The notes under the pieces were generated by a model. That model did not search any database, was not told the origin of the DNA, and worked only from the letters and a program-made list of their open reading frames with translations. Made by a program: the position numbers and the translations under genes. This document shows positions 7,235-25,008 of a DNA stretch of 60,032 bases, one piece after another. Source of the stretch: a virus; the UHGV virus genome UHGV-0168673; one strand, 5' to 3'. Positions within the stretch are counted from its first letter, which is position 1. Every line of letters begins with the position of its first letter.

Positions 7235-7264
7235 ATAGTACCATGGAAGGACAAGGATGTAAAC
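7235..7264 (-). promoter_or_regulatory. Early (sigma70-type) promoter: -35 GTTTAC, 18-nt spacer, TG-extended -10 TACTAT
   Basis: Minus strand GTTTACA..TGGTACTAT with A/T-rich upstream region; directly upstream of ORF 6964..7191. Confidence 0.6.
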
Positions 7265-7289
7265 CGTTTTGTGAAAAAAATTTTTGAAA

Positions 7290-7316
7290 TAAAAAAAGGG
7301 GACCTCTAGGGTCCCC
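7290..7316 (-). terminator. Rho-independent terminator after gene 32
   Basis: Minus strand GGGGACC-CUAGA-GGUCCCC followed by UUUUUUU. Confidence 0.7.
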
Positions 7317-7338
7317 AATTAATTAGTAATATAATCTA

Positions 7339-8247
7339 TTAAAGGTCATTCAAAAGGTCATCCAGGTCCGTGTCATCAGCACTAGATGAACTACCAGAGC
7401 TTGAGCTCATAAAATCATCTTCAGTTTTTGTATTGAAGTCATCAACATTGAATGCATCCAAATCATCAGCAACTTTATCAGCTTTCTTAGCAGCAGTTGC
7501 AGCGGCACCGCCCATCACAGCAGTTCCCATGACTTGACCGAATTTAGTGCTCAGTTCTTCAAACGATTTGAATTTATCTTTAGAAGTCATTTCAGAAAGG
7601 TCAACCATTTGTTCGAACAATTCTTTCTGGAAAGATTCATCATCAATGTTTGGAATCGCAGATTGATTCAGGAATTTAGATTCGTCGTAGTTACTAAATC
7701 CAGAAACTTGTTTAACTTTCAGTACAAAGTTAGCACCTTCCCACGGACAAGTTACATCAACCGGAGTTTCACCCATTTCAACATCAACCGCAATCATCGC
7801 GTTGATTTTATCCCAGATTTTCTTACCGAAACGATATTTAAATACTTTACCTTCGTTTTCTGGAGCAGCTGGGTCTTTTACAACAAGAATGTTAGCCCAG
7901 TAAGAAGTTTTACGTTTAACAAGACTGTACTCTTTATTGTCAGTGTTGTACAGATCATTTTTACTGATGTATTGACATACTGGGCAAGAATCGTAATCAC
8001 CATGGGTAGATGAACATGTTTCAATATACCATTTACCATTTTTCTTGAAACCGTGATTTACAAGAATTGCGAATGGTGCTTGTTCATCATTTTTAGACGG
8101 AAGAAAACGAATTACTGCTTGACCGTTACCCGCATTATCGAGTTTCAGTTTCCACTCGCCTTTATCTTCAGAAGAAAAACCACCTTTATTTCCAGCCAGT
8201 TTAGCCATTTGTGCAGCGAGTTCAGCAGTAGATTTACGTTTAAACAT
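7339..8247 (-). CDS. 32: Single-stranded DNA-binding protein gp32
   Basis: 302-aa ORF; [17 protein letters not shown].. and acidic C-terminal tail match T4 gp32. Confidence 0.97.
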
Positions 8248-8330
8248 TTTTATTTCCTTTTTAATTTAATTAACAGTTGGTGCTATGACGATGTATGACC
8301 TCATAGCTGGTCAGTGAGATAATTATAATC
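8248..8330 (-). promoter_or_regulatory. Gene 32 mRNA leader: autoregulatory translational operator (pseudoknot plus unstructured UUAAA-repeat region)
   Basis: Minus strand ..GACCAGCUAUGAGGUCAUACAUCGUCAUAGCA..CUGUUAAUUAAAUUAAAAAGGAAAUAAAAAUG matches the T4 gene 32 operator as recalled. Confidence 0.7.
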
Positions 8331-8338
8331 TATTTATA
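8331..8338 (-). promoter_or_regulatory. Late promoter motif TATAAATA upstream of gene 32 leader
   Basis: Exact TATAAATA on minus strand, ~84 nt upstream of the gene 32 ATG. Confidence 0.45.
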
Positions 8339-8346
8339 ATAAGCAA

Positions 8347-9000
8347 TTAATACTTACAAGATTTCACAGTTTCAATAAAAACACTTTTAGCTTTATGTGA
8401 ATCAATATTTAAAATTTTTCTATAAGCCTTTAACTTTATAGAATAATTATTCCAGACTAAATTATCAGTCTGTTCATCATGTTTATCAATTATATTTAAA
8501 AACGAATCAAGCAAGATAAACGTCTCAAACGAAATTATATTCGATTGAAGTAGTTTAAAAATATAACTTGATTGAACTTTTGGATTATATTCAAAGATTT
8601 CTTTAAAAGCAGAAACTTCAACTTTTTTACTAAAATAATAAATGTTGCGAATATCTTCTTCAAACTTAAATTTAATTTGCTTTAAGCGTCCGATATATTC
8701 ACGATAAAACACAAGTGCATCAGCGTCAGAGATGTCACCAATCCAAGCATCTTGGTTAGCAACCAAATTGCTTATAAAGATTAAAGCAAGTTCCTTTAAT
8801 TTATATTTTTCTGATAACTTCTGGAAAAAATACTTATCCCTTCGCTTTTGATAAGCGGCATCAGACACCCGCATGCACCAATTATACTTAATAACATCAT
8901 ACTTTCCATTCATATGTTGTTTTATCATTAAGTATAATTTATAAACTGATTTACCATCAATGTATCTTTCACCACCAGCAGGCATGCGGAGTTTAATCAT
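8347..9000 (-). CDS. 59: Helicase loader gp59
   Basis: 217-aa ORF, MIKLRMPAGGERYIDGKSVYKLYLMIKQHMNGKYDV..; same length as T4 gp59. Confidence 0.95.
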   Translation of the reverse strand: MIKLRMPAGGERYIDGKSVYKLYLMIKQHMNGKYDVIKYNWCMRVSDAAYQKRRDKYFFQKLSEKYKLKELALIFISNLVANQDAWIGDISDADALVFYREYIGRLKQIKFKFEEDIRNIYYFSKKVEVSAFKEIFEYNPKVQSSYIFKLLQSNIISFETFILLDSFLNIIDKHDEQTDNLVWNNYSIKLKAYRKILNIDSHKAKSVFIETVKSCKY

Positions 9001-9335
9001 AGTAGAAAATCTAATGTATTAGTTTTTTCACAACGAACAACAGAAGGACGTAAAAGATTTTCGTCGATAGCTTCTGACTGAATTTTTTCAATTATACCCG
9101 AAGGAATAAATTTAGCAAATTGAGTTTCAGGAATAGAGTTTTCTTCTAAGAATGCTGTCGTAGCTTCAAGATAACTCATTCCAAACTCTTCTACCATTTT
9201 TTCAATAATAAATCCATTTTCTTGACGATCAAGAAGCTTTGCTATTTCATCCTTTTCTTTCTTGATTGAAAGTTCTTTTTCTGAAAGACCGGTCTCATCG
9301 ACCGGACGAATATCATTTAGAGAAAACTGTGTCAT
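8997..9335 (-). CDS. 33: Late transcription co-activator gp33
   Basis: Track ORF starts at TTG 9344; from the ATG the product (MTQFSLNDIRPVDETGL.., 112 aa) matches T4 gp33. Confidence 0.85.
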   Translation of the reverse strand: MTQFSLNDIRPVDETGLSEKELSIKKEKDEIAKLLDRQENGFIIEKMVEEFGMSYLEATTAFLEENSIPETQFAKFIPSGIIEKIQSEAIDENLLRPSVVRCEKTNTLDFLL

Positions 9336-9582
9336 AAAGTTCAACTACCTCTTCGGTTTCAGCTTCAAACACATCACGGTTATCTTTATGATATAGAGCC
9401 AAAAGACGATTAAACATCTTGCCATCAACACCAAGTTCATCTTTAGCACGAATTCGAATATCTTTAATCAATTCATTATAACCGGAAATTTTCAGTTTAT
9501 GATCAGATGCTTCTTTAATAAATTTAGCCAAGTCTTCGCCGTGGATAGCTTCATCAAATTCAACCATTTCTTTTTTAGCCAT
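9313..9582 (-). CDS. dsbA: dsDNA-binding protein DsbA
   Basis: 89-aa ORF MAKKEMVEFDEAIHGEDLAKFIKEASDHKLKISGY..; T4 DsbA size and position. Confidence 0.85.
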   Translation of the reverse strand: MAKKEMVEFDEAIHGEDLAKFIKEASDHKLKISGYNELIKDIRIRAKDELGVDGKMFNRLLALYHKDNRDVFEAETEEVVELYDTVFSK

Positions 9583-9590
9583 TATTCACC

Positions 9591-10508
9591 TCAAAATTCA
9601 TTAATGCTATTAGTTAATTTAGAAAGACCCGCTTTTACAAAATATGAATAAATTTTGCCACGCGGTGGTAATTTATATGAATTATAGTAATTCACAATGT
9701 TTGAAGCAATATTATCAGGAATATAATCAAAATCAATTAGAACTAAATTTTCTTTATAACGATTATATTCAGATTCTGTGAGAAGCACCTTAGCTTGCTC
9801 ACGGTCATTAGCAATAGCTTCAACGATTGAAGTTTTCATTGAAGGGGTTCGTTCACCTTCAACTTTGGTAAACCAAAAGTCAGATCGTACTTTAACTGAA
9901 GCAACGTTATCCTTTTTATCGCCTTTAAGGATTTTAGTCATACAGTCAATTTCAGCAGAACCGCTTTTAATTTTAACCCATTTCTTATGCATCGGTGACC
10001 ATTGCTTAACATTTGGATATTTGTGAAGTTGAGTAAAGTCACCATCCGATGAAATGATTAAAATCTTGTGTCCTTCTAAAGAGAACTTTTTAACAAGAAC
10101 AGCAATGTGGTCATCTGCTTCATACTTATCAATATCCATAACGATGTATGGCATATAAGCTTTCAATTCATCTATAACTTTATGACTGGATTCAAAATAA
10201 CCTTCCCAGTCCCAAGTAGATTCTTCTCGTGCTTTTCCACGGTTTTTCTTATAATAATAAGCAAAATCACGACGCCAGTATCCAGATTTCGCGTTATCAA
10301 TACACAATACAATTTTAGTGTATCCAAGCGTTTTTGCTTTTTTGACATTAAACTTAATTGAGTTCAATATCAAATGACGAACCATTGATAAATTAATTTT
10401 TTCTTTATCTGGGAAGTTTACTAAAGCAGTTGAAAGCGCAATTTGACTAAAGTCAATAAAGCAAATTCCTTCTTTGTAGTCTTCATCCAACATCATTTCT
10501 AAATCCAT
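9591..10508 (-). CDS. rnh: RNase H (5'-3' exonuclease / flap endonuclease)
   Basis: Track ORF 9591..10523; internal ATG gives MDLEMMLDEDYKEGI.. (305 aa) as in T4 RNase H. Confidence 0.9.
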   Translation of the reverse strand: MDLEMMLDEDYKEGICFIDFSQIALSTALVNFPDKEKINLSMVRHLILNSIKFNVKKAKTLGYTKIVLCIDNAKSGYWRRDFAYYYKKNRGKAREESTWDWEGYFESSHKVIDELKAYMPYIVMDIDKYEADDHIAVLVKKFSLEGHKILIISSDGDFTQLHKYPNVKQWSPMHKKWVKIKSGSAEIDCMTKILKGDKKDNVASVKVRSDFWFTKVEGERTPSMKTSIVEAIANDREQAKVLLTESEYNRYKENLVLIDFDYIPDNIASNIVNYYNSYKLPPRGKIYSYFVKAGLSKLTNSINEF

Positions 10509-10570
10509 ATGAACCTCGTTCAATTAGTGAGATTTCTATTATATACCATCCGAATCTTAAAGTAAACAAG

Positions 10571-10578
10571 TATAAATA
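10571..10578 (+). promoter_or_regulatory. Late promoter TATAAATA for gene 34
   Basis: Exact TATAAATA 35 nt upstream of the gene 34 ATG. Confidence 0.75.
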
Positions 10579-10612
10579 CTTATTATTGAAAACACAATAG
10601 GAGCCCGGGAGA

Positions 10613-13600
10613 ATGGCCGAGATTAAAAGAAAGTTCAGAGCAGAAGATGGTCTGGACGCAGGTGGTGATAAAATAATCAACGTAGCTTTAGCTGATCGTA
10701 CCGTAGGAACTGACGGTGTTAACGTTGATTACTTAATTCAAGAAAACACAGTTCAACAATATGATCCAACTCGTGGATATTTAAAAGATTTTGTAATCAT
10801 TTATGATAACCGCTTTTGGGCTGCTATAAATGATATTCCAAAACCGGCAGGAGCTTTTAATAGCGGACGCTGGAGAGCATTACGTACAGACGCAAACTGG
10901 ATTACAGTCTCATCTGGTTCATATCAATTAAAATCTGGTGAAGCTATTTCGGTTAACACTGCGGCTGGTAATGATATTACATTTACTTTACCATCTACTC
11001 CAATTGATGGTGATACTATCATTCTCCAAGATATTGGAGGAAAACCTGGAGTTAACCAAGTTTTAATTGTAGCTCCAGTGCAAAGTATTGTAAACTTCAG
11101 AGGCGAGCAAGTACGCTCAGTACTAATGACTCATCCAAAGTCACAGCTAGTTTTAATTTTTAGTAATCGTCTGTGGCAAATGTATGTTGCTGATTATAGT
11201 AGAGAAGCTGTAATTGTAACACCAGCGAATACTTATCAAGCGCAATCAAATGATTTTATCGTACGTAGATTTACTTCTGCTGCACCAATTAATGTCAAAC
11301 TTCCAAGATTTGCTAATCATGGCGATATTATTAATTTCGTCGATTTAGATAAACTAAATCCGCTTTATCATACAATTGTTACTACATACGATGAAACGAC
11401 TTCAGTACAAGAAGTTGGAACTCATTCCATTGAAGGCCGTACATCGATTGACGGTTTCTTGATGTTTGATGATAATGAGAAATTGTGGAGATTGTTTGAC
11501 GGGGATAGTAAAGCGCGTTTACGCATTATAACGACTAATTCTAATATTCGTCCAAACGAAGAAGTTATGGTATTTGGTGCGAATAACGGAACAACCCAAA
11601 CAATTGAGCTTCAGCTTCCAACTAATATTTCTGTTGGTGATACTGTTAAAATTTCCATGAATTACATGAGAAAAGGACAAACAGTTAAAATCAAAGCTGC
11701 CGGTGAAGATAAAATTGCTTCTTCAGTTCAATTACTGCAATTCCCAAAACGCTCAGAATATCCGCCTGAAGCTGAATGGGTTACAGTCCAAGAATTAGTT
11801 TTTAACGGTGAAACTAATTATGTTCCAGTTTTGCAACTTGCTTACATAGAAGATTCTGATGGAAAATATTGGGTTGTACAGCAAAACGTTCCAACCGTAG
11901 AAAGAGTAGACTCTTTAAATGATTCTACTAGAGCAAGATTAGGCGTAATTGCTTTAGCTACACAAGCTCAAGCTAATGTCGATTTAGAAAATTCTCCACA
12001 AAAAGAATTAGCAATTACTCCAGAAACATTAGCTAACCGTACTGCTACAGAAACTCGTAGAGGTATCGCAAGAATAGCAACTACTGCTCAGGTGAATCAG
12101 AACACCACATTCTCTTTTGCTGATGATATTATCATCACTCCTAAAAAGCTGAATGAAAGAACTGCTACAGAAACTCGCAGAGGTGTCGCAGAAATTGCTA
12201 CGCAGCAAGAAACTAATACAGGTACTGATGATACTACAATCATTACTCCTAAAAAGCTTCAAGCTCGTCAAGGTTCTGAATCATTATCTGGTATTGTAAC
12301 TTTTGTATCTACTGCAGGAGCTACTCCAGCTTCTAGTCGTGAATTAAATGGTACAAATGTTTATAATAAAAACACTAATAACTTAGTTGTTTCACCTAAA
12401 GCCTTGGATCAGTATAAAGCTACGCCTACTCAACAGGGTGCAGTAATTTTAGCAGTTGAAAGTGAAGTAATTGCTGGACAAAGCCAAGAAGGATGGGCAA
12501 ATGCGGTTGTAACGCCAGAAACGTTACATAAAAAGACATCAACTGATGCAAGAATTGGTTTAATTGAAATTGCTACGCAAAGTGAAGTTAATACAGGAAC
12601 TGATTATACTCGTGCAGTCACTCCTAAAACTTTAAATGATCGTAGAGCAACTGAAAGTTTAAGTGGTATAGCTGAAATTGCTACACAAGTTGAATTCGAC
12701 GCAGGCGTCGACGATACTCGTATCTCTACACCATTAAAAATTAAAACCAGATTTAATAGTACTGATCGTACTTCTGTTGTTGCTCTATCTGGATTAGTTG
12801 AATCAGGAACTCTCTGGGACCATTATACCCTTAATATTCTTGAAGCAAATGAGACGCAACGTGGTACACTTCGTGTAGCTACACAAGTTGAAGCTGCTGC
12901 AGGAACATTAGATAATGTTTTAATAACTCCTAAAAAGCTTTTAGGTACTAAATCTACCGAATCGCAAGAAGGTGTTATTAAAGTTGCAACTCAGTCTGAA
13001 ACTGTGACTGGAGCATCAGCAAATACTGCTGTATCTCCAAAAAATTTAAAATGGATTGTGCAGAGTGAACCTACCTGGGCAGCTACTACTGCGGTAAGAG
13101 GTTTTGTTAAAACTTCATCTGGTTCAATTACGTTCGTTGGTAATGATACAGTTGGTTCAACACAACCTTTAGAATCGTATGAAAAAAATAGCTATGCTAT
13201 ATCTCCATATGAATTAAACCGTGTATTAGCAAATTATTTACCGTTAAAAGCAAAAGCTGCAGATAGTAATTTATTGGATGGTCTAGATTCATCTCAGTTC
13301 ATTCGTAGGGACATTGCGCAGACAGTTAATGGTTCACTAACCTTAACCCAACAAACGAATCTGAGTGCCCCTCTTGTATCATCTAGTACTGCTGCGTTTG
13401 GTGGTTCAGTTTCGGCAAATAGTACATTAACTATTTCTAATACTGGAACGGCAACTCGTCTGATTTTTGAGAAAGGACCTCAAACTGGAACTAACCCAGC
13501 ACAGACGATGACTATCAGAGTTTGGGGAAATCAGTTTAGTGGCGGATCAGATACAACGCGTTCTACTGTATTTGAAGTTGGTGATGAAACGTCTAATCAC

Positions 13601-14482
13601 TTTTATTCTCAACGCAATAAAGCTGGGAATATAACGTTTAGTATCAATGGTACTGTAATGCCAATAAATGTTAATGCTTCGGGTTCTTTGAATGCGAACG
13701 GCGTAGCAACATTTGGTAGTTCAGTTACAGCCAATGGTGAATTCATTAGCAAGTCTGCAAATGCTTTCAGAGCAATAAACGGTGATTATGGATTCTTTAT
13801 CAGGAATGATGGCGGCAGCACATATTTTATGCTTACTGCATCTGGTGATCAGACCGGTGGATTTAATGGATTACGTCCATTATCAATTAATAATCAATCC
13901 GGTCAAGTCACAATTGGTGAAAGCTTAATCATTGCCAAAGGTGCTACTATAAATTCAGGCGGTTTAACTGTTAACTCGAGAATTCGTTCTCAGGGTACTA
14001 AAACCGCTGATTTATACACCCGTGCACCGACATCTGATACTGTAGGATTCTGGTCAATTGACATTAATGATTCAGCCACTTATAACCAGTTCCCAGGTTA
14101 TTTTAAAATGGTTGAAAAAACTAACGAAGTGACTGGACTTCCGTACTTAGAACGTGGCGAAGAAGTTAAATCTCCTGGTACACTGACACAGTTTGGTAAC
14201 ACACTTGATTCGCTTTACCAAGATTGGATTACTTATCCAACGACACCAGAAGCGCGTACCACTCGCTGGACACGTACATGGCAGAAAACCAAAAACTCTT
14301 GGTCAAGTTTTGTTCAGGTATTTGACGGAGGTAACCCTCCTCAGCCGTCTGATATCGGTGCTTTACCATCTGATAATGCTACAATGGGGAATCTTACTAT
14401 TCGTGATTTCTTACGAATTGGTAATGTTCGCATTATTCCTGACCCAGTGAATAAAACTGTTAAATTTGAATGGGTTGAATAA
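10613..14482 (+). CDS. 34: Long tail fibre proximal subunit gp34
   Basis: 1289-aa ORF, same length as T4 gp34; MAEIKRKFRAEDGLDAGGDKIINVALADR.. Confidence 0.97.
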   Translation: MAEIKRKFRAEDGLDAGGDKIINVALADRTVGTDGVNVDYLIQENTVQQYDPTRGYLKDFVIIYDNRFWAAINDIPKPAGAFNSGRWRALRTDANWITVSSGSYQLKSGEAISVNTAAGNDITFTLPSTPIDGDTIILQDIGGKPGVNQVLIVAPVQSIVNFRGEQVRSVLMTHPKSQLVLIFSNRLWQMYVADYSREAVIVTPANTYQAQSNDFIVRRFTSAAPINVKLPRFANHGDIINFVDLDKLNPLYHTIVTTYDETTSVQEVGTHSIEGRTSIDGFLMFDDNEKLWRLFDGDSKARLRIITTNSNIRPNEEVMVFGANNGTTQTIELQLPTNISVGDTVKISMNYMRKGQTVKIKAAGEDKIASSVQLLQFPKRSEYPPEAEWVTVQELVFNGETNYVPVLQLAYIEDSDGKYWVVQQNVPTVERVDSLNDSTRARLGVIALATQAQANVDLENSPQKELAITPETLANRTATETRRGIARIATTAQVNQNTTFSFADDIIITPKKLNERTATETRRGVAEIATQQETNTGTDDTTIITPKKLQARQGSESLSGIVTFVSTAGATPASSRELNGTNVYNKNTNNLVVSPKALDQYKATPTQQGAVILAVESEVIAGQSQEGWANAVVTPETLHKKTSTDARIGLIEIATQSEVNTGTDYTRAVTPKTLNDRRATESLSGIAEIATQVEFDAGVDDTRISTPLKIKTRFNSTDRTSVVALSGLVESGTLWDHYTLNILEANETQRGTLRVATQVEAAAGTLDNVLITPKKLLGTKSTESQEGVIKVATQSETVTGASANTAVSPKNLKWIVQSEPTWAATTAVRGFVKTSSGSITFVGNDTVGSTQPLESYEKNSYAISPYELNRVLANYLPLKAKAADSNLLDGLDSSQFIRRDIAQTVNGSLTLTQQTNLSAPLVSSSTAAFGGSVSANSTLTISNTGTATRLIFEKGPQTGTNPAQTMTIRVWGNQFSGGSDTTRSTVFEVGDETSNHFYSQRNKAGNITFSINGTVMPINVNASGSLNANGVATFGSSVTANGEFISKSANAFRAINGDYGFFIRNDGGSTYFMLTASGDQTGGFNGLRPLSINNQSGQVTIGESLIIAKGATINSGGLTVNSRIRSQGTKTADLYTRAPTSDTVGFWSIDINDSATYNQFPGYFKMVEKTNEVTGLPYLERGEEVKSPGTLTQFGNTLDSLYQDWITYPTTPEARTTRWTRTWQKTKNSWSSFVQVFDGGNPPQPSDIGALPSDNATMGNLTIRDFLRIGNVRIIPDPVNKTVKFEWVE

Positions 14483-14490
14483 GAGGTATT

Positions 14491-15606
14491 ATGGAAAAAT
14501 TTATGGCAGAGTTTGGACAAGGATATGTCCAAACGCCATTTTTATCGGAAAGCAATTCAGTAAGATATAAAATAAGTATAGCGGGTTCTTGCCCGCTTTC
14601 TACAGCAGGACCATACGTTAAATTTCAGGATAATCCTGTCGGAAGTCAAACATTTAGCGCAGGCCTTCATTTAAGAGTTTTTGACCCTTCTACAGGAGCA
14701 TTAGTTGATAGTAAGTCATATGCTTTTTCGACTTCAAATGATACTACATCAGCTGCTTTTGTTAGCTTCATGAATTCTTTGACAAATAACAGAATTGTTG
14801 CTATATTAACTAACGGAAAGGTTAATTTTCCTCCTGAAGTAGTATCTTGGTTAAGAACCGCCGGAACGTCTGCTTTTCCATCTGACTCTATATTGTCGAG
14901 ATTTGATGTATCATATGCTGCCTTTTATACTTCTTCTAAAAGAGCTATCGCATTAGAGCATGTTAAATTAAGTAATAGAAAAAGCACAGATGATTATCAA
15001 ACTATTTTAGATGTTGTATTTGACAGTTTAGAAGACGTTGGAGCTACAGGGTTTCCAAGAAGAACGTATGAAAGCGTTGAGCAATTCATGTCAGCCGTTG
15101 GTGGAACTAATAACGAAATTGTGCGTCTACCAACTTCAGCTACTATAAGTAAATTATCTGATTATAATTTAGTTCCTGGCGATGTTCTTTATCTTAAAGC
15201 CCAGTTATATGCTGATGCCGATTTACTTGCTCTTGGAACTACAAATATATCCATTCGTTTTTATAATTCATCAAACGGATATATTTCTTCAACACAGGCT
15301 GAGTTTACTGGACAGGCTGGGTCTTGGGAATTAAAGGAAGATTATGTAGTTGTTCCAGAAAACGCTGTAGGATTTACGATATATGCGCAGAGAACTGCTC
15401 AAGCGGGACAAGGCGGTATGCGAAATTTAAGCTTTTCTGAAGTATCAAGAAATGGCGGAATTTCAAAACCAGCTGAATTTGGCATCAATGGTATTCGTGT
15501 TAATTATATCTGTGAATCTGCTTCACCTCCGGATATAATGGTACTTCCTACACAAGCATCGTCTAAAACTGGTAAAGTGTTTGGGCAAGAATTTAGAGAA
15601 GTTTAA
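14491..15606 (+). CDS. 35: Long tail fibre hinge connector gp35
   Basis: 371-aa ORF; body matches T4 gp35 (..SESNSVRYKISIAGSCPLSTAG..); N-terminal ~20 residues differ. Confidence 0.95.
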   Translation: MEKFMAEFGQGYVQTPFLSESNSVRYKISIAGSCPLSTAGPYVKFQDNPVGSQTFSAGLHLRVFDPSTGALVDSKSYAFSTSNDTTSAAFVSFMNSLTNNRIVAILTNGKVNFPPEVVSWLRTAGTSAFPSDSILSRFDVSYAAFYTSSKRAIALEHVKLSNRKSTDDYQTILDVVFDSLEDVGATGFPRRTYESVEQFMSAVGGTNNEIVRLPTSATISKLSDYNLVPGDVLYLKAQLYADADLLALGTTNISIRFYNSSNGYISSTQAEFTGQAGSWELKEDYVVVPENAVGFTIYAQRTAQAGQGGMRNLSFSEVSRNGGISKPAEFGINGIRVNYICESASPPDIMVLPTQASSKTGKVFGQEFREV

Positions 15607-15611
15607 ACTGA

Positions 15612-15637
15612 GGGAGCCTTCGGGTTCCCTTTTTCTT
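15612..15637 (+). terminator. Rho-independent terminator / UUCG hairpin after gene 35
   Basis: GGGAGCC-UUCG-GGUUCCC followed by UUUUUCUUU. Confidence 0.6.
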
Positions 15638-15645
15638 TATAAATA
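15638..15645 (+). promoter_or_regulatory. Late promoter TATAAATA for gene 36
   Basis: Exact TATAAATA 24 nt upstream of the gene 36 ATG. Confidence 0.75.
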
Positions 15646-15668
15646 CTATTAAAATAAAGGGGCATACA

Positions 15669-16334
15669 ATGGCTGATTTAAAAGTAGGTTCAACAACTGG
15701 AGGCTCTGTCATTTGGCATCAAGGAAATTTTCCATTGAATCCAGCCGGTGACGATGTACTCTATAAATCATTTAAAATATATTCAGAATATAATAAACCG
15801 CAAGCTGCTGATAACGATTTCGTTTCTAAAGCTAATGGTGGTACTTATGCATCAAAGGTAACATTTAACGGCGGTGTTCAAGTTCCGTATGCTGTAAACA
15901 ATACAAATCAATCTGGTATTTATCCTGGTAATGGAGATGCAGCTACTTTTGCTACAGCAAATATTGATATTGTTTCATGGTATGGCGTAGGATTTAAATC
16001 ATCACAAGGATCTGCCGGTAGAACTGTAGTAATTAATACACGCAATGGTGATATTAGCACAAAAGGTGTTGTGTCGGCAGCTGGTCAAGTAAGAAGTGAT
16101 GCGGCTGCTCCTATAGCAGCGAATGACCTTACTAGAAAGGACTATGTTGATGGAGCAATAAATACTGTTACAGCAAATGCAAACTCTAGAGTGTTGCGTT
16201 CTGGTGACACTATGACGGGAAACTTAACCGCACCAAACTTTTTCTCACAGAATCCTGCGTCTCAACCTTCTCACGTTCCGCGATTTGATCAAATCGTAAT
16301 TAAGGATTCTGTTCAAGATTTCGGCTATTATTAA
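15669..16334 (+). CDS. 36: Long tail fibre distal connector gp36
   Basis: 221-aa [32 protein letters not shown]..; T4 gp36 size. Confidence 0.95.
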
Positions 16335-16342
16335 GAGGACTT

Positions 16343-19300
16343 ATGGCTACTTTAAAACAAATACAATTTAAAAGAAGCAAAACTGCAGGTCAACGTCCTG
16401 CTGCTTCAGTATTAGCCGAAGGTGAATTGGCTATAAACTTAAAAGACCGTACTCTTTTTACTAAAGATGACTCGGGAAATATTATTGATTTAAGCATTAC
16501 CGCTGGCGGTAATATTAGTGGAAATATCACTCAAACTGGCGATTATACACAGACTGGAAAATTTAATTTAATTGGTCCGCAAATTGTAGCAAGCGGTGGA
16601 TATATTGAGTTTAATTATCGTACTACTGGAAGTGGGGCTTGGTCTGGTCAACACACTGCAAAAGCTCCAATTTTTGTAGATTTAAGCTCAGCTACTTCCA
16701 CATCTGAATATAATCCTATAATTAAACAGCGCTTTAAAGATGGAACTTTTTCATTAGGTACTTTAGTTTCTGAAGGTTCGTTGAAGATTCATTATATCAA
16801 TGAATCTGGCGATTCGAAATATTGGACGTTTCGACGTGACGGCGGATTTGTTGTTGACGGTGGAGGTTTAGCAGTATCAGGAGGTAGTATAACTACATCT
16901 GGAAATATTGCAGCTCTCGGAAATATTACTTCGCCTCAGATTAATACTAAAAATATTATTTTAGATACAAAAGCATTTGGACAATACGATTCGCAATCAT
17001 TAGTTCAATATGTTTATCCTGGAACAGGTGAAGAAAATGGTATAAACTATCTTCGTAAAGTTCGAGCTAAATCAGGCGGAACCATTTACCATGAAATCGC
17101 TTCAGCTCAAACCGGTAAAAATGATGAAATTTCTTGGTGGACCGGAAATACACTTACTACTAAATTAATGGGTCTTCGTAATGATGGCGCAATGGTATTA
17201 CGTCGTTCACTTGCTATTGGCACAATTACCACTGACGAAAATACTAACAACTATGGTTCTCCTACTCCAATGGGAGAAAGATATATTGCTTTGGGCGATG
17301 CTGCCACTGGTTTAAAATACATTAAGCAGGGTGTTTATGATTTAGTAGGTAATTGGAATTCTGTTGCTTCTATTACTCCTGATAGTTTCCGTAGTACTCG
17401 TAAAGCGTTATTTGGACGTTCAGAAGACCAAGGCGGAACCTGGACAATGCCTGGAACGAACGCTGCCTTTTTATCAGTTCAAACACAGGCTGATGAAAAC
17501 ACTGCTGGAGACGGCCAGACGCATATTGGCTATAACTCAGGCGGAAAAATGAACCACTATTTCCGTGGTAAAGGCAAAACTAATATTAATACTCAGGAAG
17601 GTATGGAAGTTAATCCGGGTATTTTGAAATTGGTAACTGGCTCTAATAATGTAATGTTTTATGCTGATGGCGGTATTACATCTGTTAAGCAGCTTTCAAT
17701 ATATAATGGCATATATTTAGCAGCTAATAATTCTACTGCTGGGCTAACATTCGCTCCAACTACTACAATTGATGGCACTAAGCAAATTTTGTGGGAAGGC
17801 GGTACTCGTGCTGGTCAGAATAAAAGCTATGTAACTGTTAAAGCATGGGGTAATTCATTTAATGCATCTGGCGATCGTGCTCGTGAAACAGTTTTTGAAG
17901 TATCAGATGGACAAGGATATTATTTTTATTCACAGCGTGTGGCTCCAAGTGGCTCTGAAACTACTGGGCCTGTTGTAACCCAGTTCAATGGACAAGTTAA
18001 TGCTAGAGGAAGTATTATTACTGACGGAAGTTTTAAAGTTAATGGATTAAGCACTTTAGTCGGTAATGTTACCATGTCTAATGGTTTGTTTGTCCAAGGT
18101 GGTTCTTCTATTACTGGACAAGTTAAAATTGGCGGAACAGCTGATGCATTAAGAATTTGGAATGCTGAATACGGGGCTATTTTCCGTCGTTCTGAAGATA
18201 AGCTTTATATTATTCCAACTCCACAGAATGCTGGTGAATCAGGTGGTATTTCTAATTTACGTCCGTTCTATATTACATTAAGTAATGGTAAAGTTTCCAT
18301 GGATCATGATGTAGATATCGGTGGAGGTAGATTTAAAGTAGAAGTGGCTGGAACTACTGCTAATCAACGCATAACAGTAAATATGGCATCAGATGCTATT
18401 AGAATAAATGCTCCAACACAAGAGTCTTCTAACTTCATTCAAGGACGTAAAGCAGATGTTCCGAAATGGTATTTAGGTATTGGCGATGGCGGAAACGTCG
18501 TTCGTATGCATAGTTACACCCATTCACATGGTATTGCATTAAACTCTGATACTGTCGATATTACTAAGCCTCTTAAAGTCGGAAATGCCCAACTAGGAAC
18601 TGACGGTAATATTACCGGTGGTTCAGGAAACTTTGCTAATTTAAACAGTACAATTGAATCATTAAAAACCGATATTGTTTCAAGTTATCCTATTGGAGCT
18701 CCTATTCCATGGCCAACGGATACTCCTCCTGACGGTTACGCTATTATGGAAGGCCAGACTTTTGATAAGTCTGCATACCCAAAATTGGCTATGGCTTACC
18801 CATCTGGCGTAATTCCAGATATGCGCGGGCAAACTATTAAAGGTAAACCAAGTGGTCGAGCTGTATTAAGCGCAGAAGCCGATGGTGTTAAGGCTCATAG
18901 CCATAGTGCATCGGCTTCAAGTACTGACTTGGGTACTAAAACTACATCAAGCTTTGATTATGGTACTAAAACATCTTCAAGCTTTGATTATGGTACTAAG
19001 ACTAGTAACACCACAGGAAACCATAATCATACAGTGAGTGGTAATACTAGTTCCGCCGGTGCGCACCAACACAACGAAGGGACGTATTTTTCATCGTACG
19101 GATACTTTATGAACGGATACAATATTCGCCAGTCATCGGGAGCTGCCATCGAAACATCCAATAGACAAGGCATAGCGTTTTATGGTAAAACCTCTAGTGC
19201 TGATGCCCACACTCATAGTTGGTCAGGAACCACGAGTACTACAGGTAACCATGCTCATACTGTAGGTATAGGTGCTCATACCCATACTGTAGGTATCGGT

Positions 19301-19420
19301 GCTCATACCCACACGGTAGCAATTGGCTCGCATGGTCATACTATCACTGTAAATAGTACAGGTAATACAGAAAACACGGTTAAAAACATTGCTTTTAACT
19401 ATATCGTTCGTTTAGCATAA
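16343..19420 (+). CDS. 37: Long tail fibre distal subunit gp37 (receptor-binding), T4-type with HxH iron-binding repeats
   Basis: 1025-aa [31 protein letters not shown]..; C-terminus ..[42 protein letters not shown] as in T4. Confidence 0.95.
18932..19009 (+). repeat. Tandem 30-bp repeat (2.6 copies) inside the gp37 tip, encoding GTKT(T/S)SSFDY
   Basis: ggtactaaaactacatcaagctttgattat / ggtactaaaacatcttcaagctttgattat / ggtactaagactagtaac. Confidence 0.85.
19259..19339 (+). repeat. Three tandem 27-bp units in gp37 encoding the His-box nonapeptides TVGIGAHTH / TVGIGAHTH / TVAIGSHGH
   Basis: actgtaggtataggtgctcatacccat / actgtaggtatcggtgctcatacccac / acggtagcaattggctcgcatggtcat. Confidence 0.85.
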
Positions 19421-19450
19421 GGAGAGGGGCTTCGGCCCCTTCTAAATATG
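19421..19450 (+). promoter_or_regulatory. Gene 38 split ribosome-binding site: SD GGAG, then C(UUCG)G hairpin, then AUG
   Basis: GGAG-AGGGGC-UUCG-GCCCCU-ucuaaau-AUG; linear SD-to-AUG distance ~23 nt, shortened by the hairpin. Confidence 0.65.
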
Positions 19451-19999
19451 AAAATATATCATTATTATTTTGACACTAAAGAATTTTACAAAGAAGAAAA
19501 TTACAAACCGGTTAAAGGCCTCGGTCTTCCTGCTCATTCAACAATTAAAAAACCTTTAGAACCTAAAGAAGGATATGCAGTTGTATTTGATGAACGTACT
19601 CAGGATTGGATTTATGAAGAAGACCATCGCGGAAAACGAGCATGGACTTTTAATAAAGAAGAAATTTTTATAAGTGAAATTGGAAGCCCGGTTGGTATAA
19701 CTTTTGATGAGCCTGGCGAATTTGATATATGGACTGATGACGGTTGGAAAGAAGACGAAACATATAAGCAAGTTTTAATTCGTAATAGAAAAATTGAAGA
19801 ATTATATAAAGAGTTCCAAGTTTTAAATAATATGATTGAAGCTTCTGTCGCAAATAAAAAGGAAAAATTTTATTATAAAAACCTTAAGCGGTTCTTTGCT
19901 CTTTTAGAAAAGCATGAGCATTTAGGTGGTGAATTCCCTTCATGGCCTGAAAAAGAACGGAAACCTTGGTATAAGCGTTTATTCAAGCATTACGTATAA
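19448..19999 (+). CDS. 38: gp38, long tail fibre assembly chaperone (T4-type, not the T2-type adhesin)
   Basis: 183-aa ORF, same length as T4 gp38; MKIYHYYFDTKEFYKEENYKPVKGLGLPA.. Confidence 0.9.
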   Translation: MKIYHYYFDTKEFYKEENYKPVKGLGLPAHSTIKKPLEPKEGYAVVFDERTQDWIYEEDHRGKRAWTFNKEEIFISEIGSPVGITFDEPGEFDIWTDDGWKEDETYKQVLIRNRKIEELYKEFQVLNNMIEASVANKKEKFYYKNLKRFFALLEKHEHLGGEFPSWPEKERKPWYKRLFKHYV

Positions 20000-20002
20000 A
20001 TA
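19995..20002 (+). promoter_or_regulatory. Late promoter TATAAATA for the holin gene t, overlapping the gene 38 stop codon
   Basis: cgTATAAATAtc; the TAA of gene 38 lies inside the motif; 18 nt before the t ATG. Confidence 0.7.
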
Positions 20003-20019
20003 TCTTAAAAGGAGGGTCT

Positions 20020-20676
20020 ATGGCAGCACCTAGAATATCATTTTCGCCCTCTGATATTCTATTTGGTGTTCTAGATCGCTTGTTCAAAGATAACGCTACC
20101 GGGAAAGTTCTTGCTTCCCGGGTAGCTGTCGTAATTCTTTTATTTATGATGGCGATTGTTTGGTATAGGGGAGATAGTTTCTTTGAGTACTATAAGCAAT
20201 CAAAGTATGAAACATACAGTGAAATTATTGAAAAGGAAAGAAATGCACGCTTTGAATCTGTCGCCCTGGAACAACTCCAGATAGTTCATATATCATCTGA
20301 GGCAGACTTTAGCGCGGTGTATTCTTTCCGCCCTAAAAACTTAAACTATTTTGTTGATATTATAGCATACGAAGGAAGATTACCTTCAACAATAACTGAA
20401 AAATCACTTGGAGGATATCCTGTTGATAAAACTATGGATGAATATACAGTTCATTTAAATGGACGTCATTATTATTCTGACTCAAAATTTGCTTTTTTAC
20501 CAACTAAAAAGCCTACTCCCGAAATAAACTACATGTACAGTTGTCCATATTTTAATTTGGATAATATCTATGCTGGAACGATAACCATGTACTGGTATAG
20601 AAATGATCATATAAGTAATGACCGCCTTGAATCAATATGTGCTCAGGCGGCCAGAATATTAGGAAGGGCTAAATAA
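20020..20676 (+). CDS. t: Holin T
   Basis: 218-aa ORF MAAPRISFSPSDILFGVLDRLFKDNATGKVL..; one TM segment; matches T4 T. Confidence 0.95.
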   Translation: MAAPRISFSPSDILFGVLDRLFKDNATGKVLASRVAVVILLFMMAIVWYRGDSFFEYYKQSKYETYSEIIEKERNARFESVALEQLQIVHISSEADFSAVYSFRPKNLNYFVDIIAYEGRLPSTITEKSLGGYPVDKTMDEYTVHLNGRHYYSDSKFAFLPTKKPTPEINYMYSCPYFNLDNIYAGTITMYWYRNDHISNDRLESICAQAARILGRAK

Positions 20677-20949
20677 TTATTTGTTCGTATACATCTCTAG
20701 ATATCGATATACACCCTCAAAACCCTCGTTGAATTCGTCGATGAGGGTTTTCTTATCTTCTTGAGTTAATTCAGAAACAATTTTACGGAATGAATTCTGA
20801 TTTAATTTTCTACCTTCATGCGTTACTCCAATCTCATTCAGAAATGCAATAAAATTAGCACGATTTTCAACAATATCTTCTCTGGAAAATTTAATCAAAA
20901 TAGACGCAACAGTAATAATTTCACGAACTGTATCAATGTTTTTATTCAT
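20677..20949 (-). CDS. asiA: Anti-sigma70 factor AsiA
   Basis: 90-aa ORF MNKNIDTVREIITVASILIKFSREDIVENRANFIAF.. matches T4 AsiA. Confidence 0.95.
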   Translation of the reverse strand: MNKNIDTVREIITVASILIKFSREDIVENRANFIAFLNEIGVTHEGRKLNQNSFRKIVSELTQEDKKTLIDEFNEGFEGVYRYLEMYTNK

Positions 20950-20961
20950 TAACTATACCAC

Positions 20962-21114
20962 TCAATTAGTTGACTTTGTTATAATATCATCAGACGCTTG
21001 ATTTGTAAACTGGTCTGTGTTATTTTCTTCAAAAATTTTTTCTACGAATTCTTTGAACGACTCACGTTCCTGAGCTACATTATGCTCGATTACCTTTTCA
21101 AGATTATGACTCAT
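20962..21114 (-). CDS. Small hypothetical protein (50 aa; position of T4 asiA.1), not in ORF track
   Basis: MSHNLEKVIEHNVAQERESFKEFVEKIFEENNTDQFTNQASDDIITKSTN; ATG overlaps the arn stop (ATGA); stop 12 nt before the asiA ATG. Confidence 0.5.
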   Translation of the reverse strand: MSHNLEKVIEHNVAQERESFKEFVEKIFEENNTDQFTNQASDDIITKSTN

Positions 21115-21389
21115 TCGAAATAATCTTCAATTTCATAATCATGGACATAAATCATTATAGTTTTTAATACATCATCAATACTTTTTCCTGGAGCTGGAAT
21201 TACATAAAAATATCCTGCTTTTGAGAGGTCTTTATAAGTTCCAACCAAGAAATCGTTATTCTCAAGATGTAGTTCTTCAACTAATTCATTGACAATTGAG
21301 TGGTATAAATTTGGTAGAAACTTATATAGCTTTTCTAGAATATCAATTTTGATTGTGTATTGAACCACGGACTGAGAATCAATAATCAT
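21111..21389 (-). CDS. arn: Anti-restriction nuclease Arn (McrBC inhibitor)
   Basis: 92-aa ORF MIIDSQSVVQYTIKIDILEKLYKFLPNLYHSIV.. matches T4 Arn. Confidence 0.9.
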   Translation of the reverse strand: MIIDSQSVVQYTIKIDILEKLYKFLPNLYHSIVNELVEELHLENNDFLVGTYKDLSKAGYFYVIPAPGKSIDDVLKTIMIYVHDYEIEDYFE

Positions 21390-21472
21390 AGACCTTCCCC
21401 TTATGTTTCTGTTTGCGATTAGATTCTTTAAACGCTTTCTTCTTATCCTTATGAACAGAAGCTTTATTAAAA

Positions 21473-21691
21473 TTATGCTTTGCGACTAAATTGTTCATAG
21501 TGCTGAATTACCTCTCTTAAACATTTGCATGTGAATGAAAACTTTTTAGCTACACCACATTCAAATATATGTTCTCTTAAATCACGTGTATCAGTATATC
21601 CCATCTCAACAATAAAATGCCGTATTAGATTTTTATCTTTATCATTAAGAGAATTAAAATAGTCAGATTTTGAATTAATTTCCCTGGCCAA
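21473..21691 (-). CDS. Hypothetical protein (arn.1 position)
   Basis: 72-aa track ORF. Confidence 0.5.
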   Translation of the reverse strand: MAREINSKSDYFNSLNDKDKNLIRHFIVEMGYTDTRDLREHIFECGVAKKFSFTCKCLREVIQHYEQFSRKA

Positions 21692-21971
21692 ATTGAATCA
21701 CCTTCAGTTGACGTTTTAACTCTTTTATCATTTCTTCGTTCATCGCAATATAAAGATCACGTAAAGCAGGTTTTAGCATGTCATTTATTATAGAACTAAA
21801 TGGACATACATAATCTTTTCCTACGAGCTTTTTGGTGAATTCCATATCACAGAACTTAAATCCCGGCTCATTGGTATAAATTCCCCAATTAGTTGACATC
21901 ATTTTATTAGCATATTCCAGCGCCTGGATTTGATTCATAATTCCATCAATTTGAAACTTTTTAATATTCAT
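21675..21971 (-). CDS. Hypothetical protein (arn.2 position)
   Basis: 98-aa track ORF. Confidence 0.5.
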   Translation of the reverse strand: MNIKKFQIDGIMNQIQALEYANKMMSTNWGIYTNEPGFKFCDMEFTKKLVGKDYVCPFSSIINDMLKPALRDLYIAMNEEMIKELKRQLKVIQFGQGN

Positions 21972-22432
21972 TAGTAAAGGTCCTCAGAGTAAAGTTCTTT
22001 TTCACTACCACCGCGTTCAATACGTACTTGTCCGGCGTAAGTTGCAATAATCATTGCTTCTTCACGTGTCCAATAATTACTATATTGGTCAATAAACCCT
22101 TGGTCATCATCACAAACTTGCTGAGTAACTAATTGAGGTTTAACTACATCTAAAACTTCTGCCATATCTTTAGAATAATGACGAGCACCTGGAATAATAA
22201 GAGTTCGTCCATCTTTTAATTTAAAACGGTTGGCTGCGCAAACAATTCGTCGTTGATATTTTTGATTTTCGTCCCAATATGCAGACTGCCAACAGATTTC
22301 AGGAACTTCTTTCAGAATATCTTCTTCTGTGCATTTATAACCATGCGCTTTAAATTTTTCAACAAGACTTTCTGGAGTCTCACGAGATAAAGGAACATTC
22401 AACATTTTTAAACGATTAATAAATGGGTTCAT
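21971..22432 (-). CDS. Hypothetical protein (arn.3 position)
   Basis: 153-aa track ORF; stop/start overlap with neighbours. Confidence 0.55.
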
Positions 22433-22758
22433 TTAAACCATCCTTTAATACGTTGCCACAAAGTTTTCTGTTGAGCTTTGTTAACACCAATTGAGCGAAT
22501 AACTGGTTGAGATTCCTGGAATTCTTTATAATCGGCAAGGTAAATTTCGTAAGCTGCATCTGTAAAGGAACTTATCGCTGCCATGAAATTATTGCGAATA
22601 CCTACTGGAGCATCTTTACTTTCACGAATAATCATGTATTTACCAGTCTTAATCTTTACAATAGTTCCAAGATAAGCTCCATGGTACCAAATATCCCAAC
22701 CCTCTTGAGTAGGTTCTGCACAACGACGAAGTTCATTGACAATTTCTAACTTGTTCAT
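22429..22758 (-). CDS. Hypothetical protein (arn.4 position)
   Basis: 109-aa track ORF. Confidence 0.55.
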
Positions 22759-22768
22759 TATTTATTCC

Positions 22769-23404
22769 TCACAGTTCAGATGCTACAGTGATTACAGCTT
22801 CAATGTTTTCTGCCGAGCGTTTAATGTCAAGATACACATTACCGTTTTTAGCGATTTTACATGACATTCCGATATCAGTAAATTTCTGAATATGATGTTC
22901 CATCATTTTATATCCAAAAATTCGCATGTTTCCATTGTTGTTAATTTCAAAATTACGAATTCCGTGAGTGCGTTTTTCTAAAATAGCGAGATAGTTACTG
23001 CGATAAGTTTCAACCTTTTTAAGAACAAATCCATTTTCATCTAAAAGTTTTAACATGAGGTCTTTATCTTCTTCCATATCGGAAGTAATCTCGCGAGCTT
23101 TACGAGTTGCTCGTTTTTTCAGTAGTTCCGGAGCATTTTCTTGTGCGTATAAAGTTGCTGCATTTGAAATAATATCCTGAGCTTCACCAGTAATGATTAA
23201 TCCATCACCAGATTTCTCCACCAGGCCTTTTTTAATTAATACCCCAATATTACTATTAACTACTGCGTTACCTAAATCTGGATGCACCTCACGAACTTCT
23301 GCAGCTGTAATGAAATCTTTCTTAGCAATGGTAATTAAAATCGCAGCAGTTTTTTCATTCAGAACATCGTTAGAAGCTTTGATGATGTAAGTTACTTTAG
23401 ACAT
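22769..23404 (-). CDS. motA: Middle-transcription activator MotA
   Basis: 211-aa ORF MSKVTYIIKASNDVLNEKTAAILITIAKKDFITAAEVREV.. matches T4 MotA. Confidence 0.95.
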   Translation of the reverse strand: MSKVTYIIKASNDVLNEKTAAILITIAKKDFITAAEVREVHPDLGNAVVNSNIGVLIKKGLVEKSGDGLIITGEAQDIISNAATLYAQENAPELLKKRATRKAREITSDMEEDKDLMLKLLDENGFVLKKVETYRSNYLAILEKRTHGIRNFEINNNGNMRIFGYKMMEHHIQKFTDIGMSCKIAKNGNVYLDIKRSAENIEAVITVASEL

Positions 23405-23445
23405 TTTCTAATCTCCGTAATTCTGTATCAGTAGTTGATAGTTGT

Positions 23446-23475
23446 ATAGTACCACAGTATGCTTTGGTTGTAAAC
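23446..23475 (-). promoter_or_regulatory. Early promoter for motA (-35 GTTTAC, TG-extended -10 TACTAT)
   Basis: GTTTACAaccaaagcatactgTGGTACTAT on minus strand; A/T-rich upstream block identical to the module at 7258..7296. Confidence 0.6.
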
Positions 23476-23499
23476 CGTTTTGTGAAAAAAATTTTTGAA

Positions 23500-23527
23500 A
23501 TAAAAAAGGGAGAGCCGAGGCTCTCCC
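23500..23527 (-). terminator. Rho-independent terminator after the motA.1-like ORF
   Basis: Minus strand GGGAGAGC-CUCG-GCUCUCCC followed by UUUUUUA. Confidence 0.65.
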
Positions 23528-23533
23528 TAAAAA

Positions 23534-23683
23534 TTACTGCATGACTGTGATAACTGTCATGATAACACGTTGAATTCCGAACGCAAGAAGACCTCCTGCT
23601 ACGGCTGGAACAACACCTAAACCCGCCAGTAAAATGCTACCGGATACTAATGCAGCGCTTGTAATACCTATGAATGGACTCAT
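23534..23683 (-). CDS. Small hydrophobic protein (49 aa; motA.1 position), not in ORF track
   Basis: MSPFIGITSAALVSGSILLAGLGVVPAVAGGLLAFGIQRVIMTVITVMQ; ATG overlaps gene 52 stop (ATGA). Confidence 0.5.
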   Translation of the reverse strand: MSPFIGITSAALVSGSILLAGLGVVPAVAGGLLAFGIQRVIMTVITVMQ

Positions 23684-25008
23684 TTGATTTCCTCTAAATC
23701 TTTAGTGTATTCAGTAACTACATCAGTAGTTTTCCAATATTCGTTTTCTTCTTTTTTAGCTTTAGCTTCTTCAGCAAGTTTCTTTGCTTCGTCGGAAGTC
23801 ATATGAAAAATATTCATTCCAACTAATTTATCAACATAAGAAGAATACATATCGATTTTCGAAAGTTCTTCGGTCAGTTCTTTACGAGTTTTACCCTGTA
23901 CAACAATTTCACATGAAATTACTTTCTTAATGAAATGTGCCTTGGCAAAGGCTAAACGAAAGGCTGACTCAGTTTCTTTAATTTTGTTATCAATTCGTTT
24001 TTGGACATAAGTTTTACGAACTTCGACGAAGTCTTTGATTAAATCAACTACGTTATCGTAAACTTGTAGTTTTCCTTTCTCATTAATAACCGTAATATTC
24101 TGAGAACGACGCTCAATCAACCCGAAGTCTTTCATAATTTTTGCATGGCGTTCTTCTTCGTTATCGCTCAAAGAATATTCTTTGCGGAATTTAACTTTGA
24201 ATCCAAAACCGTGCTCACCACAAGCATCATCCCATGTAATGAAGCCTTTATCTTCAAGTGGGTCTAAGATTTTACTCACATAAGTTTCACGATCATACTT
24301 ATACGGAATCTCAGTGATATGCATTTGAGTTCGTGAAGTAAACTTGTACGTTCCACGAATTTCATATTGACCGTCAATCTCAACGACTTCACCACGAAAT
24401 TCTGGGAATTCTACCTTCGGTTTAGTTACTTTCTTTCCTTGAAGAGCTTGCAGTACAGCTTTCTTGACAGAAGAAACACTATGAGGAAGAATGTAAGTTG
24501 CATAACCAGTTGCAATACCGGAAACACCATTAAGAAGAACAGTAGGAATAATAGGCAAATAGAAAGCAGGCGGAATGTGTTCTTTATCTTGATGTACCGG
24601 AGCATATTCAGTATCTTTATATACGTTATAGAAATTTTTACTTACACGAGCAAAAATATAACGACTTGCTGCTGCTTTTTGGACGGTACGAGAACCGAAG
24701 TTTCCTTGACCATCTAACAGAGGAAAATTATTATTCCAAGTGTTAGCCATCAAAGCACCTGCATCTTGTGCAGAGTTTTCACCATGATGATATCCAAGGT
24801 CAGCTACACCACCTGCAATAGAAGCAAGTTTGTGAAACTTATCTTTATTTCCTCGTGCCAAATCAAGAGCTCGAGCAATAACAAATCGTTGGACTGGCTT
24901 AAATCCGTCAATCATATTTGGGATAGCACGATTTTCAACCGTGTACATAGCATAAGCCAATGCTTCATTATCAATAATACTTTTTAAATCGCGATTATTC
25001 AGTTGCAT
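23680..25008 (-). CDS. 52: DNA topoisomerase II medium subunit gp52
   Basis: 442-aa ORF MQLNNRDLKSIIDNEALAYAMYTVENRAIPNMIDGFKPVQR.. matches T4 gp52. Confidence 0.95.
   Translation of the reverse strand: MQLNNRDLKSIIDNEALAYAMYTVENRAIPNMIDGFKPVQRFVIARALDLARGNKDKFHKLASIAGGVADLGYHHGENSAQDAGALMANTWNNNFPLLDGQGNFGSRTVQKAAASRYIFARVSKNFYNVYKDTEYAPVHQDKEHIPPAFYLPIIPTVLLNGVSGIATGYATYILPHSVSSVKKAVLQALQGKKVTKPKVEFPEFRGEVVEIDGQYEIRGTYKFTSRTQMHITEIPYKYDRETYVSKILDPLEDKGFITWDDACGEHGFGFKVKFRKEYSLSDNEEERHAKIMKDFGLIERRSQNITVINEKGKLQVYDNVVDLIKDFVEVRKTYVQKRIDNKIKETESAFRLAFAKAHFIKKVISCEIVVQGKTRKELTEELSKIDMYSSYVDKLVGMNIFHMTSDEAKKLAEEAKAKKEENEYWKTTDVVTEYTKDLEEIK

Follow-up and report, generated by a model that had tools for sequence, protein, structure and literature searches.

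Two tandem arrays in the gp37 tip of a T4-type phage as probable matching halves of an additional needle rung

Introduction

Why should the distal tip of a phage tail fibre be built in part from tandem DNA repeats, and what could such repeats do there? The question is raised by gene 37 (16343..19420, plus strand) of the virus genome UHGV-0168673, a stretch of 60,032 nucleotides that we call the window. This open reading frame (ORF) encodes gp37, the distal subunit of a T4-type long tail fibre, a protein of 1025 residues in which the Pfam domains Collar (PF07484) and gp37_trimer (PF20744) are recognized. A sequence-only reading of the window had pointed to in-frame 30-bp and 27-bp tandem arrays in the gp37 tip, had taken the repeat segment to specify receptor recognition and had proposed that its expansion or contraction could act as a host-range switch.

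The tip of the T4 fibre provides the structural reference. Its collar, its six-stranded needle with histidine-x-histidine (HxH) motifs and its small head (PDB 2XGF; Bartual et al. 2010) are common to the tip in the window. The T4 collar comprises residues 811-881 and 1010-1026, the stem residues 882-931 and 960-1009 and the head residues 932-959 (PMC9603124). Seven irons, coordinated by HxH motifs, lie along the axis of the needle (PMC6957217, PMC11705849, PMC12609058), while contact with the receptor is made by the head, residues 932-959 (PMC9603124, PMC5221442, PMC6957217), in which the receptor and host-range mutations are also located (PMC5221442, PMC6957217). Magaziner and Salmond (2022, PMC9659904) have described a T4/lambda-type family of receptor-binding protein tips, with a conserved distal tip of ~215 residues and a variable central specificity segment. 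Ur-lambda Stf and the side tail fibres of many enterobacterial prophages belong to it, and Shigella phage SHBML-50-1, which is important below, is listed in it. The fold, the HxH iron sites, the variable head, a Pfam repeat for the histidine (His) boxes and the T4/lambda family with its conserved flanks are already known; repeats, matched numbers and recombination are not discussed in PMC9659904.

Results

Tandem Repeats Finder, applied to gene 37, returned two arrays of 2.4 copies each, one with a 30-bp unit at 18932..19004 (86% matches), the other with a 27-bp unit at 19256..19319 (91% matches). Both are in frame and translate as GTKTxSSFDY units and TVGIGAHTH units, respectively. The first two copies agree at 27 of 30 positions in the 30-bp array and at 26 of 27 in the 27-bp array (24-26 of 27 depending on the frame), and the third copy is diverged in both, with 15-16 matches. 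When the tandem match was expressed as a binomial score, the gene itself gave -log10P values of 12.5 and 13.8, and none of 500 codon shuffles of the gene exceeded 7.6. Repeat detection, translation and codon shuffling thus all bear out the existence of the two in-frame arrays. Read as protein, the first holds two full GTKTxSSFDY units (18932..18991) and a partial third, 18932..19009 in total, and the second holds two TVGIGAHTH units and a diverged TVAIGSHGH, at 19256..19339.

In which part of the tip do these arrays lie? The 257 C-terminal residues of gp37 match the T4 tip chain of 2XGF from end to end (phmmer E=1.4e-86; query 1-257, chain 16-242), and the domain borders of the window's tip, all on the plus strand, were carried over from T4 by alignment. 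The N-terminal portion of the collar or knob domain falls on residues 780-850 (18680..18892, corresponding to T4 811-881); the Collar model PF07484 itself scores 43.9 bits (cut-off 24) at residues 785-832, ahead of the stem. There follow an ascending needle-stem arm of 60 residues (18893..19072; 50 in T4) with HxH motifs at 18896..18904, 19022..19030 and 19064..19072, a predicted receptor-binding head of 39 residues (19073..19189; 28 in T4), and a descending arm of 59 residues (19190..19366; 50 in T4) with HxH motifs at 19208..19216, 19250..19258, 19277..19285, 19304..19312 and 19331..19339. The last part is the 17-residue C-terminal strand of the collar (19367..19417), which is identical in T4, as are the last 70 residues altogether. 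Since the ascending arm holds the 30-bp array and the descending arm the 27-bp array, both arrays sit, by homology with T4, in the needle stem and outside the receptor-contacting head (19073..19189). The earlier idea that this segment specifies receptor recognition holds for the stretch between the arrays, which is the specificity determinant, and fails for the repeats, which belong to the stem.

Against T4 (2XGF and NC_000866) the alignment opens gaps at exactly one GTKTxSSFDY unit and one GIGAHTHTV unit, and the T4 segment between the arrays is shorter and unrelated in sequence to the head of the window. The sequence-only reading had described T4 correctly, with one SSFDY copy, one fewer His-box unit and a different intervening sequence, and the tip is indeed divergent from T4, by two unit gaps and an unrelated head. 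In the window's tip, three HxH motifs on an ascending arm of 60 residues and five on a descending arm of 59 add up to eight; T4 has seven, on arms of 50 and 50. The HxH motifs that had been called extra are all present; they are standard motifs of the needle, and only one goes beyond the seven of T4. The His-box units also resemble PF03335, a curated 14-residue phage tail fibre repeat, and the FDY spacers lie outside this model. Its match to the stem of the window is weak (18.2 bits, E=0.0024, in four stretches; the gathering cut-off is 20 bits), and in the homologues P0018 and P0005 it scores 53.2 and 38.6 bits.

The published T4 contacts G921-F970 and G964-H929 (PMC6957217) give an antiparallel register of i+j ~1891 in T4 numbering, which brings F902 of the FDY unit to the height of H989 in GIGAHTH. 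In this register the FDY and His-box units would face each other. An AlphaFold2 monomer of the 257-residue tip, made from a 51-sequence alignment, was of low confidence, with a predicted local distance difference test value (pLDDT) of 58.8 and a predicted template modelling score (pTM) of 0.29. Foldseek matched it best to 2xgf_A, at a template modelling score (TM) of 0.34-0.40 and a root-mean-square deviation of 13 Å. A monomer model is of no use for judging how the units pack, since an obligate trimer of interwoven chains makes up the needle.

Do the two arrays vary independently of each other? We parsed the HxH spacing in 258 tips, obtained from a 90%-cluster search and a 50%-representative search together with T4, PhiZZ23 and the window; 12 homologues were left out as truncated or frameshifted database entries. 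Most of the homologues are prophage fibres of the T4/lambda-type tip family. In all 258 tips, for n nine-residue spacings on the descending arm (n=1-6), the first and the second HxH span 12+10n residues, and the two arms have the same number of 14-residue spacings (0/0, 1/1 or 2/2). Two tips seemed to deviate only through parsing errors, and both obey the rule, which also holds for 13 individually fetched phage tips and for 46 of 47 additional distinct tips from viral contigs. Some twelve classes of architecture occur among the homologous tips. In each of six clusters of near-identical heads, two or more architectures are represented, and every change is matched on both arms. The closest example is PhiZZ23, whose head differs from that of the window by 2 residues and whose tip is shorter by exactly 30 nt and 27 nt; PhiZZ6 and the window are one unit per array apart from PhiZZ23, in DNA that is otherwise 96-100% identical. 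With the copy numbers of the two arrays coupled in ~300 homologues, expansion or contraction of a single array is not a free switch.

Several tips are irregular in their units and still have arms of equal length. In P0225 one FDY unit has turned into NHDHG, which places an HxH on the spacer, and P0265 has an additional HxH nine residues past the first. P0217 combines four irregularly spaced FDY units with seven His boxes, and P0251 has a single FDY unit without the usual leader, together with two 14-residue rungs. P0038 and P0042, annotated as 'phage terminase large subunit family protein', join a terminase domain (PF05876) to collar and tail-fibre-repeat domains and could represent ORFs that were fused or mis-called where prophages or contigs join.

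The state with two units on each arm (2+2) is the usual one in T4-type tips, and T4 and PhiZZ23 represent the short form; among the homologues 1+1 and 2+2 are both abundant. The architecture of the window, with HxH spacings of 42,14 on the ascending arm and 14,9,9,9 on the descending arm and with eight HxH motifs, is also that of TuIa and TuIb (X55190, X55191; Montag et al. 1990), SHBML-50-1, AdolfPortmann, AndreasVesalius, KAW1E185, PhiZZ30, JK36 and p000v. The heads that it carries are of different kinds. The head in TuIa, TuIb and the TuIb-type tips (AdolfPortmann, KAW1E185, PhiZZ30, JK36, p000v) has 46 residues and is of another sequence type than that of the window, which could not be aligned to the heads of T4, SHBML-50-1 or TuIb. 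TuIa presumably uses OmpF and TuIb OmpC, as the name and classical usage suggest. The head of the window is shared with PhiZZ6, JK45, JLBYU31 and PhiZZ23. In PhiZZ6, JLBYU31 and JK45, which come from the UK, the USA and Ireland and were independently assembled, the 821-bp tip gives a single ungapped match of 99.3-99.8% DNA identity, head included. The N-terminal half of gp37 differs in these three phages (16-60% in several blocks in PhiZZ6). Phages with this head have E. coli K-12 derivatives and C. rodentium as hosts. A literature search found no description of PhiZZ6 or PhiZZ23, no receptor information for JK45 or JLBYU31, and nothing joining 'His box' with tail fiber.

How did this combination of shaft and tip arise? 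Over 16343..18993 the DNA of gene 37 in the window agrees at 100% with that of SHBML-50-1; it is densely divergent over 18994..19255 and near-identical again afterwards, and against PhiZZ6 the gene is 99-100% identical from ~17850 to its end. By these comparisons gp37 of the window is a new mosaic of an SHBML-50-1 shaft and a PhiZZ6-type tip. Relative to SHBML-50-1, the putative exchanged cassette at 18994..19255 (plus strand) comprises one 14-residue rung and the head and has its edges in or at both arrays. The comparisons with TuIb, AdolfPortmann and KAW1E185 show complete identity over 18721..18945 and 19271..19420 and confine all 149-150 differences to 18946..19270. The upstream single-nucleotide polymorphisms (SNPs) between PhiZZ23 and the window end inside an FDY unit, and the block of identity between the metagenome contig L005 (IMGVR_UViG_3300030021_000020) and TuIa stops at the arrays. 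As delimited by these alignments, the exchanged unit is the head plus the inner rung, with its edges in the two arrays. That conserved motifs at this locus mediate adhesin swapping is an older idea (Tetart 1998, as cited in PMC3157838). A cassette edged by arrays fits it and also offers a simple route to a new copy number, namely a crossover one unit off register.

The units themselves show different degrees of likeness. The DNA of the two GIGAHTHTV units agrees at 27/27 positions in SHBML-50-1, and in TuIa it differs at 4-5 sites, which suggests a recent duplication or gene conversion of units in some T4-like lineages only. Concerted evolution of the units across the family was considered and rejected, because the identity between units within a genome (0.73) is the same as that of the same unit between genomes (0.73-0.77).

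The surroundings of gene 37 are those of a typical T4 long-tail-fibre cluster, from gp34 (10613..14482) through gp35 (14491..15606), gp36 (15669..16334), gene 37 and gene 38 to holin t (20020..20676). Gene 38 (19448..19999, plus strand) lies directly downstream and encodes a T4-type tail-fibre assembly chaperone of 183 residues, annotated as such in relatives and 98.4% identical to T4 gp38. On this account the arrangement is that of T4, in which gp38 acts as a chaperone and the adhesin is part of gp37 itself, and not that of T2 or T6. In the T2/T6/S16 type a gp38 adhesin of ~260 residues caps a cleaved gp37 (PMC3157838); such a locus was rejected for the window, where gp38 is the 183-residue T4 chaperone and gp37 has a complete needle and head of its own. 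Between the stop codon of gene 37 (19418..19420) and the start of gene 38 (19448), right after AAGGAG, stands GGGGCTTCGGCCCC (19426..19439), which would fold as a 5-bp stem with a UUCG tetraloop; the T4 element is the same with one C fewer.

Outside the tip, the statement that most of gp37 matches T4 proved too strong. Amino-acid identity is 55.6% overall and 14-31% in some blocks. Two shaft blocks, 16493..16942 (residues 51-200) and 18293..18592 (residues 651-750), are essentially unrelated to T4, at 14-31% and with insertions and deletions, and gene 37 is a fine-grained mosaic well beyond its tip. The second of these blocks is unlike PhiZZ23 too. No record of the phage collection matches positions 1..25000 of the window throughout; the best is ESh33, with 96.5% over the 25 kb, and GiZh, SHBML-50-1 and PhiZZ6 reach ~96.6% in this region. 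The window is a Tequatrovirus mosaic that is either unsampled or unlisted.

Discussion

In this work we asked what two tandem arrays do in the tip of a T4-type long tail fibre. We think it probable, at about 0.8, that together they make up one extra rung in a T4-type needle, as its matching halves, and that they serve also as recombination joints. Each chain of gp37 would run from the collar to the head and back, and three chains would make a six-stranded needle, stapled by metal ions along its axis, each ion being held by an HxH of all three chains. The 30-bp unit would supply a 10-residue ascending spacer that is free of histidine (GTKTxSSFDY), and the 27-bp unit a 9-residue descending His box (TVGIGAHTH), with one predicted iron site each, located at the height of the spacer. 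One FDY unit and one His-box unit at equal height would form one rung, of which the window would have two and T4 one. With the second rung the needle would hold eight predicted iron sites rather than seven and would be ~3 nm longer, and receptor specificity would reside in the 39-residue head between the arms. Because the arrays are conserved in DNA, they may also join different heads to different shafts by recombination, and crossovers out of register within them would add or remove units. Such crossovers should yield mismatched products as often as matched ones, and only those with equal numbers on both arms would persist. Mismatched forms are nearly absent, which argues for selection for equal arm lengths.

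Several observations weigh against this reading or limit it. The pairing of FDY and His-box units is derived from T4 numbering and comparative counts, the monomer model being poor, and the trimer and the iron sites of the window are predicted from homology to T4. The ~300 homologues are related and stand for far fewer independent events, of which at least 6-8 can be discerned. In only three comparisons do cassette edges coincide with the arrays, and conserved sequence beside a variable head would draw alignment boundaries to itself anyway. The similar identities of units within and between genomes, given above, mean that ongoing turnover of units is not general. Lastly, there is one rule-breaker, L005, a metagenome contig of 10.5 kb with the tip ORF ending near position 2268. 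In its tip, two FDY units stand against a His-box array that is one unit short; the head cassette agrees with that of TuIa at 100%, and the SNP pattern changes over at the 27-bp deletion. Is L005 a real out-of-register recombinant, which would make the matching less than absolute, or the product of a chimeric metagenome assembly? It could be either.

Could the repeats matter only as DNA? They would then be patches of homology for head swapping, and the number of rungs would be a neutral by-product as long as the arms match. This is a serious possibility, though not one that we favour. It accounts for the divergent blocks that end in the arrays in the comparisons with SHBML-50-1, the TuIb-type phages, PhiZZ23 and, for L005, TuIa, and it agrees with the finding of one head with different rung numbers and with the abundance of both 1+1 and 2+2. 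The units are, however, kept as protein where their DNA has drifted (73% identity between genomes), F, D, Y, G and the two histidines being unchanged throughout the alignment, which indicates that they are structural elements first.

A more speculative extension of the extra-rung model concerns the length of the needle itself. Perhaps length is a quantised and separately selected property, with matched modules (a 10-residue FDY unit with a 9-residue His box, or 14 residues with 14) toggled by out-of-register recombination, which would alter the reach of the tip through lipopolysaccharide (LPS) and O-antigen, and with it adsorption or host range, without any change of the head. We regard this as rather doubtful, although it is possible that a needle ~3 nm longer affects receptor reach through LPS in a quantitative way.

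It is less likely still that gain or loss of repeats is in itself a host-range switch, acting through the length of the needle or the geometry of the tip, as the sequence-only reading had suggested. In favour of such a switch, copy number is polymorphic between relatives as close as PhiZZ6 or the window and PhiZZ23, the near-identity of the first two copies (27/30 and 26/27, and 27/27 in SHBML-50-1) suggests recent duplication or conversion, and the number of HxH motifs roughly tracks needle length in the Bas63 structure paper (PMC12609058). There is also a laboratory precedent, since duplications in T4 gene 37 are reported to widen the host range so that it takes in Yersinia (Tetart 1996, cited by PMC7002106 and PMC5221442). 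These duplications are in frame and lie in the C-terminal adhesin region of gp37, but they were selected in the laboratory and may be of other units than those of the window. Against the switch stands the location of the units in the stem, while host-range and receptor mutations of T4 map to the head. A useful change would require two separate matched indels, and slippage rates would be low at 2.4 copies. PhiZZ6 (2+2) and PhiZZ23 (1+1) have a common head, and Citrobacter rodentium DBS100 was the isolation host of both, so copy number is no obvious switch of host, and head and length vary independently, given that six head types each occur with more than one rung number. Given the laboratory precedent, the proposed switch keeps some probability, but it is unsupported here. 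A hypermutable contingency locus was also considered and rejected, in view of the 2.4 copies, the diverged third copy, unit lengths that are multiples of 3 nt and changes that are matched in two arrays.

That the extra units are an assembly artefact is very improbable: short-read assemblers can mis-count near-identical tandem units, and the 2+1 count of L005 is odd, but the arrays, at 60-80 bp, are below ordinary read length, the 2+2 state recurs in SHBML-50-1, in TuIa and TuIb (the last two sequenced by the Sanger method in 1990) and in many others, a mistake in one array would violate the matched-number rule to which the window conforms, and the ungapped tip of identical layout in the three independent assemblies of PhiZZ6, JLBYU31 and JK45 excludes it for practical purposes and answers the earlier worry about assembly collapse.

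We did not find the matched-module rule, or cassette edges at the arrays, in the literature examined, a set that leaves the primary structural and genetic papers outside, and we claim no priority for either. If the two arrays are halves of one rung, as we propose, some practical consequences would follow. In tail-fibre engineering, chimeras should be joined in the FDY and His-box arrays and would have to retain the same number of units on both arms. In quality control, a mismatched count such as that of L005 would flag a chimeric assembly or an unusual protein. The count of HxH motifs would serve as a sequence read-out of predicted virion iron, 8 x 6 fibres here and 7 x 6 in T4. As for the phage itself, what looked like an oddity of its tail fibre seems to be ordinary biology: a common long-needle T4-type tip, carrying a head type already known from GenBank, on the shaft of another phage.

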